Shown here piece by piece: positions 3,489-5,344 of a stretch of DNA of 64,000 bases. The DNA comes from a virus (lineage: Duplodnaviria > Heunggongvirae > Uroviricota > Caudoviricetes). Position 1 is the stretch's first letter. Each line of letters opens with the position of its first letter. The position numbers and the translations under genes are program-made. The stretch lies in IMG/VR virus record IMGVR_UViG_2541047938_000006, one strand, 5' to 3'. The notes under the pieces were generated by a model. The model worked only from the letters and a program-made list of their open reading frames with translations, did not search any database and had not been told where the DNA came from.

Positions 3489-4715
3489 ATGCCGGTAACT
3501 ATAACAAAAATCAGAACTGGAGAAGATGTTTTGTCAGCAGCCATTCACCGCATTGAATGGTTGTTTGAAACATTCTCTTCTGTATGTTTATCTTTTTCTG
3601 GCGGTAAAGATTCCACTGTACTTTTCCATCTTGTAGCCGAAGTGGCCTACAGGAAGAAACGTCGTTTTTCTGTATTGTTCATTGACTGGGAAGCCCAGTA
3701 TCAATGCACCATTGATCATATACAGAAGATGCGGATGATGTACCAAGATGTAACAGATACCTTTTACTGGGTTGCACTTCCCCTGACGACAGTAAATGGT
3801 GTCTCGCAGTTTCAGCCTGAGTGGATATGCTGGGAGCCCGGTGTAGAGTGGGTTCGACAGCCACCGGAAGATGCTATTACTGATATGGCGTATTTCCCCT
3901 TTTACCGCTACGCCATGACTTTTGAAGAATTTGTCCCAGCTTTTTCTTCCTGGTTCGCAAGTAACCAATGTAGCGTGGCAATACTGACTGGAGTCCGCGC
4001 GGATGAATCTCTTAACAGATTTATGGGACTGGTTTCCCAACGAAAACTGAGATATGCAGATGATAAACCCTGGACCACGGCGTCACCTGAAGGTTTTTAC
4101 TACACCATGTATCCGCTGTATGACTGGAAAACCAACGATATCTGGGTATATAACGCTAAAACCTGTGCAATCTACAATCCTCTGTATGATTTGATGTACC
4201 GTGCAGGCATTCCTCTACGTAATATGCGTGTCTGTGAGCCTTTTGGCCCGGAACAGCGTAAGGGACTATGGCTTTATCATGTTCTGGAGCCAGAAACTTG
4301 GGCACGGATGTGTGAACGAGTATCTGGTGCTGCCAGTGGGGCTCTTTATGCCAATGAAAGCGGGGCCTATTTTGCCCTGCGTAAACGGATGTCAAAACCA
4401 TCCCATCATACCTGGCGCAGCTATGCGTTCTTCCTGCTGGACGTAATGCCGGAAAGAACGGCTGAACACTACCGCAACAAGATAGCAGTCTACCTGCGCT
4501 GGTATCAGAACCGGGGATTCCCGGATGATATCCCGGATGAACAGGAAAATGATCTGGGCTGCCGGGATGTTCCCTCCTGGCGACGTATTTGTAAGACTCT
4601 CATAAAGAATGATTTCTGGTGCCGAACGCTCTCCTTCAGCCCCAACAAACCCCGGCACTATGAACGTTACCTGCAGCGTATGAATGAAAGGAGGAAGGAA
4701 TGGGGAATTCTGTGA
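3489..4715 (+). CDS. ibrA: IbrA-like PAPS-reductase-family PP-loop protein (DUF3440-type)
   Basis: 408-aa ORF with PP-loop motif SFSGGKDS near N-terminus; size and pairing with a ParB-like gene match the ibrAB locus described for Eib-producing E. coli. Confidence 0.7.
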   Translation: MPVTITKIRTGEDVLSAAIHRIEWLFETFSSVCLSFSGGKDSTVLFHLVAEVAYRKKRRFSVLFIDWEAQYQCTIDHIQKMRMMYQDVTDTFYWVALPLTTVNGVSQFQPEWICWEPGVEWVRQPPEDAITDMAYFPFYRYAMTFEEFVPAFSSWFASNQCSVAILTGVRADESLNRFMGLVSQRKLRYADDKPWTTASPEGFYYTMYPLYDWKTNDIWVYNAKTCAIYNPLYDLMYRAGIPLRNMRVCEPFGPEQRKGLWLYHVLEPETWARMCERVSGAASGALYANESGAYFALRKRMSKPSHHTWRSYAFFLLDVMPERTAEHYRNKIAVYLRWYQNRGFPDDIPDEQENDLGCRDVPSWRRICKTLIKNDFWCRTLSFSPNKPRHYERYLQRMNERRKEWGIL

Positions 4716-5344
4716 CACCAGAGGTGGAGGTGCTGAGCAAGATGATTCGACAGTACTTCAGTCAGGAACAATCTGAAGAGAAAACCATACAGGCCCTGAA
4801 CCATCTCCGCTGCGTACTCCATGAGATCAGCCCCTTTGCTCAAGAACCAGTGGACTGTGTGCTGTGGGTAAAAGCGGATGAAATTGTCGCTAACGATTAT
4901 AATCCCAATGTCATGGCCCCAAGCGAAAAAAAATTACTGAAACAATCTCTGGAAAAAGACGGTTTTACTCAACCAATTGTTGTTTCGGAAGAAACAAGCC
5001 ATTACCTGGTGGTGGATGGTTTTCATAGGCAGTTACTAGGTAGAAGAACAGTTACTGGAAAACGCCTGAAAGGCTGGCTACCAGTAACCTGTATTAATCC
5101 AGACCGAAAGGGACAAACCTCACGTATTGCCGCGACTATCCGACATAACAGAGCCAGGGGGAAACACCAGATAACCTCAATGTCTGATATTGTCAGAGAT
5201 CTTTCACGTCTTGGCTGGACTGATGAACGTATCGGAACAGAACTGGGGATGGACCAGGATGAAGTTCTGAGGTTAAAGCAGATTAGCGGGCTAACGGAGT
5301 TATTTCAGCAGGCAGATTTCAGCCCTGCATGGACTGTTACATAA
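4700..5344 (+). CDS. ibrB: IbrB-like ParB/sulfiredoxin-domain protein
   Basis: 214-aa ORF overlapping ibrA stop; strong RBS AGGAGGAAGG; ParB-N-like region (DGFHR motif) plus HTH-like C-terminus. Confidence 0.7.
   Translation: MGNSVTPEVEVLSKMIRQYFSQEQSEEKTIQALNHLRCVLHEISPFAQEPVDCVLWVKADEIVANDYNPNVMAPSEKKLLKQSLEKDGFTQPIVVSEETSHYLVVDGFHRQLLGRRTVTGKRLKGWLPVTCINPDRKGQTSRIAATIRHNRARGKHQITSMSDIVRDLSRLGWTDERIGTELGMDQDEVLRLKQISGLTELFQQADFSPAWTVT

Follow-up and report, generated by a model that had tools for sequence, protein, structure and literature searches.

The overlapping genes ibrA and ibrB were reportedly cloned from Escherichia coli ECOR-9 by Sandt, Hopper and Hill in 2002 (J Bacteriol), who are said to have found both to be required for activation of eib in lysogens; the activation was reportedly observed without induction. 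The IbrAB island of ECOR-9 is also said to carry antirepressor homologues and homology to Stx2 phage, with its left boundary near min 35.8. Here we analyse an ibrA-ibrB pair at positions 3489-5344 of a 64,000-nucleotide stretch of DNA from a virus of the Caudoviricetes (IMG/VR record IMGVR_UViG_2541047938_000006; hereafter the window), where the pair shares a prophage with an eib gene. Why return to this pair? It is common in E. coli, conserved across domains of life and linked to a serum-resistance and antibody-binding adhesin, and more than 20 years have passed without biochemistry for it. The window offers a convenient natural setting, with regulator and target in one prophage and a module identical to that of Escherichia phage PhiR5_2, which plates on K-12. 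The pair is already known by name and identical genes have been deposited. Added here are the match to the ECOR-9 site, the presence of regulator and target in one P-Eib-type prophage, statistics on the obligate pairing, the absence of a conserved cysteine, accessory domains and the K-12 paralogues. To a specialist the finding will hardly be a surprise, but the question behind it is long-standing, well defined and within reach of experiment. The comparative results narrow the chemistry to sulfur-free adenylation and direct attention to DNA.

VirB, KorB and Noc are ParB-family cytidine triphosphate (CTP) switches that serve gene regulation or DNA binding without partitioning, and VirB activates silenced AT-rich virulence genes. 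A ParB-type protein can also serve a DNA-modifying enzyme, as DndB does with DndC and DpdB with DpdA (PMC10853773, PMC12839542). E. coli K-12 has paralogues of the pair, YbdN and YbdM (b0602/b0601), which are 57% and 61% identical to IbrA and IbrB over their full length and are encoded by overlapping genes in the same order. They differ from ibrAB in their chromosomal, non-phage context beside the repressor CitR and in having no link to eib (PMC9068703). The biochemical activity of IbrAB is unreported, as a first-pass annotation of the window had supposed: the literature searched gives no biochemistry, and K-12 YbdM is called 'completely uncharacterized' (PMC8764527). No paper on the IbrAB mechanism was found in a searchable set that excluded the 2002 IbrAB paper and Maindola et al. 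2014.

Identity and location of the gene pair

PhiR5_2 (recorded host MG1655) has genes under the annotations IbrA and IbrB whose DNA matches that of the pair at 100% identity. Over 2.1 kb the window shows no difference from this phage or from several complete E. coli genomes. In RefSeq the two proteins are entered as 'phosphoadenosine phosphosulfate reductase' and 'IbrB-like domain-containing protein'. The first-pass annotation, which had recognised IbrA/IbrB in a PP-loop protein of the phosphoadenosine phosphosulfate (PAPS) reductase family coupled to a ParB/sulfiredoxin-like protein, is borne out. Both genes lie on the (+) strand, ibrA at 3489-4715 (408 amino acids) and ibrB at 4700-5344 (214 amino acids), and they overlap by 16 nt. 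In the coupling region (4689-4715, +) an AGGAGG (4689-4694) stands 5 nt ahead of the ibrB ATG (4700), and the ibrA TGA lies at 4713-4715; A-B junction overlaps of 1-19 nt recur in many related loci. The two genes are ibrA and ibrB, and they form a self-contained two-gene operon.

The window begins in the E. coli chromosome, with ynfF in its first 2.1 kb and then the opening 84 nt of ynfG. The attL site falls at ~2211/2212 within ynfG, with phage DNA from ~2212 onward; on the K-12 map this point of insertion lies at 35.83 min. The prophage is lambdoid, of the 933W/P-Eib type, and 933W-type genes are present. This locus, with its antirepressor genes and 933W-type DNA, fits the reported description of the ECOR-9 IbrAB island point for point, from which we infer that the island is the end remnant of a prophage like that of the window. 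The two share the overlapping two-gene layout, the antirepressor and 933W-like companions and, as reported, the site at min 35.8; the match is by proxy, through the annotated PhiR5_2 genes and the reported site. They differ in arrangement: ECOR-9 keeps its island apart from its four eib prophages, whereas in the window ibrAB and an eibD-like gene occupy one prophage, intact as far as seen.

IbrA

The PP-loop of IbrA, SFSGGKDS, spans residues 35-42 (3591-3614, +). In Pfam it exceeds the curated cut-offs for PAPS_reduct (E 1.5e-16) and for DUF3440 (E 5.2e-33); the PP-loop family ATP_bind_3 matches weakly, and PHROGs places the protein in phrog_2302. In the structural model DUF3440 is predicted to be the C-terminal helical domain. 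A degenerate PP-loop was looked for, and the loop proved intact. Of 40 diverse homologues with 28-53% identity, all have G39, K40 and S42, at least 95% have S37, G38 and D41, and 95-100% have D66, E68, R170/E173/S174/R177, D217, Y233 and several tryptophans. Sequence and model together show that IbrA has an intact ATP-pyrophosphatase PP-loop, and the conservation speaks for an enzyme rather than a degenerate scaffold. Its fold is that of PAPS reductase, CysD and FMN adenylyltransferase, and its best matches are adenylyl-transferring enzymes. No close solved relative was found by sequence, the best match being FAD synthase (E 0.001). Long IbrA homologues contain no added Pfam domain bar one weak ABC_tran match.

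Does IbrA serve sulfur metabolism? If it were a true reductase of PAPS or adenosine phosphosulfate (APS), or a sulfate adenylyltransferase, it would provide reduced sulfur during infection. The product name given by both RefSeq and PHROGs, the PHROG category and the fold shared with APS/PAPS reductases and CysD are in keeping with such a role, which we nevertheless consider most improbable. Curated CysH and CysD models score 31-38 bits against cut-offs of 154-397 (for CysH, TIGR02057 gives 31.2 against 254.2 and NF002537 gives 32.9 against 154). The catalytic cysteine is not conserved, and the 40 homologues have no invariant cysteine at all: Cys249 occurs in 25 of the 40, with Ala in 8, and is invariant within the enterobacterial clade. 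Because the curated scores lie so far under their cut-offs and no cysteine is invariant, IbrA is not a PAPS reductase. It differs from CysD, from FMN adenylyltransferase (the PAPS domain of FAD synthase) and from CysH in its added DUF3440 and its ParB-type partner. A CysN-like GTPase partner is missing, and sulfate assimilation has no use for the partner that IbrA does have, an obligate one of ParB type whose C-terminus is probably a helix-turn-helix.

The first-pass annotation also saw a resemblance to PP-loop enzymes of Dnd/Ssp type. The part that stands is the architecture: as in DndB-DndC of DNA phosphorothioation and in BrxP of type 4 BREX, a DGxHR-type ParB/sulfiredoxin (Srx) protein accompanies a PP-loop ATPase of PAPS-reductase fold that acts on DNA (PMC10853773, PMC12839542). 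The part that does not stand is membership of those families. The DndC model TIGR03183 gives 17.8 bits against a cut-off of 290.4, and in PADLOC IbrA has partial matches only, to BrxP (E 1.6e-7) and DndC (E 4.5e-5). DndC has cysteines for its iron-sulfur cluster and sulfur chemistry that IbrA lacks, and the DndA/D/E, Ssp and Brx partners are absent near ibrAB. Since no cysteine is conserved, iron-sulfur and persulfide chemistry of the DndC/TtuA type is unusable family-wide. Judged by these comparisons, CysH- or DndC-type chemistry is unlikely for IbrA; what remains is the transfer of AMP from ATP onto a substrate oxygen, with release of pyrophosphate.

IbrB

IbrB joins a nucleotide-binding domain of ParB/Srx fold to a probable helix-turn-helix. 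Of the two domain assignments proposed at first, DUF3440 holds directly; ParB-N holds for the family profile and not for the single sequence, which scores 18.9 bits against Pfam ParB_N, under the 26.3 cut-off. A profile of 14 family members (IbrB and 13 relatives) matches ParB/Spo0J in the PDB (4umk, E 7.6e-7), as well as the ParB/Srx-fold kinase SbnI (E 0.0045) and CTP-binding chains of the ParB family. Through this match IbrB has the ParB N-terminal fold and the G-x-x-R phosphate motif of the ParB/Srx superfamily. Its PHROGs family is phrog_2159, 'ParB-like partition protein' (E 4.9e-91), with further matches to the ParB-like part of the phage DNA methyltransferase phrog_498 and, weakly, to a transcription regulator. 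No close solved relative was found by sequence (best ParB, E 0.004).

Forty-six positions are invariant between E. coli IbrB and its homologues in Streptococcus, Microcystis, Mycobacterium and Flavobacterium phages (five phyla including E. coli), in the blocks ANDYNPN, DGFHR, TIRHNRARGxH (TIRHNRARGKH in E. coli) and GM..E..R. DGFHR (residues 106-110; 5015-5029, +) aligns with GERR of the ParB CTPases (4umk) and with DGVHR of SbnI (5uje), which points to nucleotide binding of the Srx/SbnI/DndB type and away from the CTP clamp of canonical ParB proteins. The last 45 residues probably form the helix-turn-helix; a low-confidence model has three short helices at residues 161-202.

Is the pair then purely regulatory? 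IbrB would in that case be a switch like VirB, KorB or Noc that relieves H-NS-type silencing at eib, spreading on the DNA or remodelling it, and IbrA a helper that loads IbrB or supplies or removes its nucleotide ligand, with no covalent modification. We hold this to be doubtful. The order of a ParB-N domain followed by a probable helix-turn-helix speaks for it, as do a weak sequence match to Noc and the resemblance of the VirB effect to the reported activation of eib. A canonical ParB, Noc, KorB or VirB protein is not what was found: IbrB has DGFHR, as in SbnI, Srx and DndB, in place of GERRxR, ends soon after the helix-turn-helix with no C-terminal dimerisation domain of its own, has no parA nearby, and scores 22.7 bits with the Noc model against a cut-off of 315. 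Unlike those switches, it needs an enzyme partner, and strict conservation of the catalytic motifs of IbrA would be unexpected in a mere chaperone.

Pairing and gene neighbourhoods

In 82 of 82 viral loci with an IbrA ORF, IbrA is accompanied by an IbrB homologue at most 900 bp away and in the same orientation, with either gene first, and IbrA adjoins IbrB in 77 of the 80 genomic loci, which were found via IbrB. The pair is a near-obligate unit. No universal third gene was found in the viral and genomic loci compared. A domain of ~140 residues with no Pfam or PHROG match is present in 56/84 viral and 10/80 genomic loci, either fused to the IbrB C-terminus, as in the C-terminal ~160 amino acids of long IbrB proteins (e.g. 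L049:1623-2768), or encoded by a separate gene between ibrB and ibrA (L034:5552-5974, L005:4567-4992). Its motif is W-E-x-Y..GFY...C-E-H-Y-L-T-N...A-W-L-G-Q, it may be a third subunit in one clade, and it has no match in the window. An SNF2 helicase gene lies directly upstream of the pair in ~15 of 119 loci, among them those of Streptococcus phage PY1 and Flavobacterium phage FCL-2, and a GNAT acetyltransferase gene lies in or beside it in 12 of 164 (examples of such SNF2 and GNAT genes are L007:3261-4472, L004:3883-5051 and L063:4688-5986); neither is found among the genes annotated around the window's pair.

Frequent neighbours are ERF, SSB, NinB, NinG and DnaB-like genes, and the pair commonly lies within phage replication and recombination modules or just before the terminase genes. 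A ParB/PAPS-reductase/ParB block stands just upstream of terS/terL in Mycobacterium phage Kamiyu (directly before the terminase), Arthrobacter phage Laroye (before a methyltransferase gene and terS) and Faecalibacterium phage Taranis (0.65 kb upstream of terS). These placements would suit an accessory of replication or packaging, in which the ParB-like protein would cut DNA or recognise sites on behalf of replication, recombination or terminase and the PP-loop protein would be its cofactor. We think such a role improbable. By the map of the near-identical prophage of strain EC2, the window's pair lies tens of kb from the terminase and replication genes, in a terminator-bounded unit of its own; chromosomal ybdNM has no phage context; and the ECOR-9 phenotype is said to occur in uninduced lysogens.

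Could the pair instead be a defence or counter-defence device, marking phage DNA against restriction or excluding superinfecting phages, with an incidental effect on eib? This overlaps with the enzyme model proposed below, differing from it in purpose only, and as a purpose we rate it unlikely. In its favour are the weak PADLOC likeness to BrxP and DndC, a setting among prophage accessory genes that adjoins an antirepressor gene and a Panacea gene, the methyltransferase gene beside the pair in Laroye and the GNAT genes noted above. A 2026 preprint also lists candidate defence clusters centred on a nucleoid-associated protein, which is joined in one cluster by a PAPS reductase and in another by proteins with Arc and ParBc domains (10.64898/2026.04.06.716658). 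PADLOC, however, matches neither IbrA nor IbrB as a member of any defence system, and no conserved restriction-type effector adjoins the pair in the loci compared. No dnd, ssp or brx partner gene lies near the window's pair, and no such cluster is found among the conserved neighbours in the 164 loci. Chromosomal ybdNM is moreover stable, core-like and under metabolic regulators (PMC9068703).

Proposed mechanism

Beyond the domain assignments, what follows is what we infer. We favour, with somewhat less than even confidence, a two-subunit, DNA-directed and nucleotide-using enzyme, of which eib activation is a downstream effect. We favour it because the catalytic motifs are strictly kept, the pairing is obligate, the neighbours belong to DNA metabolism, helicases are among the partners and precedents exist. 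IbrB would bind DNA and a nucleoside triphosphate and would position or activate IbrA, which would use ATP to adenylate a substrate oxygen, freeing pyrophosphate. The substrate would most likely be DNA or a DNA-bound partner, and sulfur chemistry of the CysH/DndC type would play no part. The ancestral role may have lain in phage DNA metabolism, in marking or processing DNA when it is replicated and packaged. The outcome in E. coli would be that AT-rich prophage genes such as eib lose their silencing, which would match the reported ECOR-9 phenotype. To the Dnd and Dpd precedents a third is added by the ParB-methyltransferase fusions; IbrB matches the ParB-like part of phrog_498. In DpdB-DpdA, which acts in 7-deazaguanine modification, and in these fusions, the enzyme that modifies DNA is assisted by an NTPase or domain of ParB type (PMC12839542); the catalysis differs, being that of a transglycosylase or a methyltransferase rather than of a PP-loop enzyme.

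A bolder version is tentative and somewhat improbable in our judgement: that IbrAB is the core of an uncharacterised, virus-spread system of nucleic-acid modification, and that a new covalent DNA mark explains eib activation. A ParB/Srx-type nucleoside triphosphate binder would guide a cysteine-free, PP-loop adenylating enzyme onto DNA, and some lineages would have added a helicase, an acetyltransferase or the 140-residue domain. If true, this would be a virus-borne system spread across most bacterial phyla and into archaea.

Several observations weigh against the two-subunit enzyme. No modified base or backbone is tied to the IbrAB family in the literature searched. The window's pair lies outside the replication module, among accessory genes (ant, Panacea) at the prophage end, a position that also fits a role in lysogenic conversion or defence. 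Activation of eib, the sole known experimental phenotype, is explained equally by a pure regulator. The IbrB model is poor (predicted local distance difference test score, pLDDT, 44.5) and leaves the fold unconfirmed by structure, so that the helix-turn-helix and the nucleotide pocket are read from alignment only. The distribution of Cys249, finally, leaves room for thiol chemistry in the enterobacterial clade.

The eib gene and its link to ibrAB

The eib gene of the window (23683-25143, -) encodes an EibD-like trimeric autotransporter of 486 amino acids, with YadA head and anchor domains in Pfam, an E value of 1.8e-106 against the sequence of the EibD crystal structure (PDB 2xqh) and 80% amino acid identity to ECOR-9 EibD. 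It lies 18.3 kb from ibrB in one and the same prophage (the first-pass annotation gave 19 kb). The cassette has the same order as in GenBank AF151675 (phage P-EibD, ECOR-9), namely orf-191/eib/orf-156, then orf-60 and an L0124-like gene. Directly downstream of eib, an open reading frame (ORF) of 166 amino acids (23124-23624, -) is 99% identical to ORF-156D of P-EibD; it belongs to phrog_6585 (unknown function) and matches no Pfam family. By eye its C-terminus resembles a LuxR-type helix-turn-helix, so that every eib gene may have a regulator of its own in cis.

Eib is the reported target of IbrAB activation. This activation, which reportedly needs both genes (quoted in PMC7649339 and PMC6008420), is the one reported phenotype and speaks for a purely regulatory pair. 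DNA like eib occurs in 54 of 5426 complete E. coli genomes, among which the window's allele (23683-25143) has no full-length match above 92%. Among the 19 genomes that have the window's ibrAB allele, at least 5 carry eib too, against 0.19 expected (hypergeometric P 8e-7, raw and ignoring shared ancestry). In those genomes eib usually lies hundreds of kb from ibrAB, and in several it is in a different prophage, as in ECOR-9.

Regulatory DNA

What could set the expression of the two loci? Behind ant, a hairpin with a T-run (3297-3319, +) was identified by RNA folding of 3288-3325, which gives -14.2 kcal/mol (z -3.5), with none of 200 shuffles equally stable; a simple terminator scan does not list it. 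It probably ends ant transcription, and ibrAB would therefore need a promoter of its own. The ant-ibrA spacer (3293-3488) has 34% GC against 50% for the window, and a sigma-70 consensus scan of its AT-rich part upstream of ibrA (3320-3488, +) gave no promoter match. One imperfect inverted repeat lies upstream of ibrA (3382-3401 / 3427-3446); no strong palindromes were seen flanking ibrA and ibrB. The stretch upstream of eib (25144-25506, -) is similarly AT-rich, at 33% GC, and is a candidate site for silencing and de-repression of eib. The low GC content of both upstream stretches would suit a regulator that relieves silencing. A search for a parS-like site common to the eib upstream stretch and the ibrAB region found nothing shared above 10 nt, which is chance level.

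Distribution and variants

A copy of ibrAB is present in 1930 of the 5426 complete E. coli genomes (~36%). Nearly all copies have ~84% DNA identity to the window's, whose allele is found in only 19 records. The common variant (~1900 genomes) resides on plasmids or in degraded islands near the autotransporter gene cah, and its ibrB is followed by a gene for a PerC-family activator and a hypothetical gene of 214 amino acids (L088:8912-9181, L089:8902-9171). One plasmid has the pair immediately next to hyxB, likewise an autotransporter gene.

Two observations from these E. coli relatives favour pure regulation. In the common variant, ibrB and perC transcripts rise together upon contact with epithelial cells (PMC7649339). 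In K-12, ybdNM is repressed by the adjoining LysR regulator CitR (YbdO), which is H-NS-controlled (PMC9068703). Deletion of citR (ybdO), which derepresses ybdNM, also raises expression of the cys regulon and of flagellar genes (PMC9068703). This rise may reflect some metabolic or global action of the pair or may be unrelated to it, since flagellar changes are frequent in BW25113 derivatives.

Searched beyond E. coli, IbrA matches 1811 cluster representatives at E <= 0.001, and a relative is present in 224 phage records. IbrB-like proteins with 47-64% identity (best tblastn segment, as for the values that follow) occur in Bacillota, Chloroflexota, Spirochaetota, Actinomycetota, Bacteroidota, Candidate Phyla Radiation (CPR) and archaeal assemblies, and identity reaches at least 50% in Bacillota, Chloroflexota, Spirochaetota, CPR and archaeal assemblies. 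Assemblies of Thorarchaeota, Bathyarchaeia and CPR (WWE3, Parcubacteria) have 51-56% (L148, L146, L145, L171). Conservation of IbrB is unusually high for a phage-borne accessory protein. Such identity in hosts without H-NS or eib (Bacillota, Actinomycetota, CPR, Archaea) argues against a pair that acts only as a switch at eib, as does its presence in FCL-2, in which the authors saw no integrase or repressor (PMC4541368). Because of this spread, the neighbourhoods described above and FCL-2, we take the conserved function not to be specific to eib, H-NS or lysogeny.

Prophage setting

The pair occupies the attL-proximal end of the prophage, in the order ant, hairpin, AT-rich spacer, ibrA-ibrB, Panacea gene and LPD38 gene, followed towards the interior by tail genes and then the eib cassette. 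The right edge of the window is still inside the prophage, at recE/bet/exo. Upstream of ibrA, ant (2657-3292) encodes an AntA/AntB antirepressor. The Panacea/SocA-type domain gene (5433-5957, -) stands alone, convergent with ibrB and with no obvious toxin partner adjoining.

Strain EC2 carries a near-identical prophage, in which the eib position is followed by N4-gp56-type capsid, portal, terminase, lysis, nin and replication genes. Full colinearity of the window with EC2 was rejected: the window has one ant copy fewer and ~4.4 kb extra further right. Upstream of ibrA, EC2 (L001:18291-19410) has two copies of ant, one of them truncated, where the window (2118-2700) has one, and the ant-side interval is 528 bp shorter in the window; one copy was presumably lost by recombination between the two. 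As the ant-side and right-side lengths differ, the window comes from a strain other than EC2, and the coordinates of its features were read from the window itself.

Beyond the Panacea gene, a giant ORF of 2792 amino acids (6108-14486, -), named an LPD38-domain protein in RefSeq, is typical of short-tailed phages of the 933W type. Upstream of the DUF4376/eib cassette, two overlapping tail-fibre-like ORFs (26105-28176, -) contain long collagen-like G-X-Y repeats.

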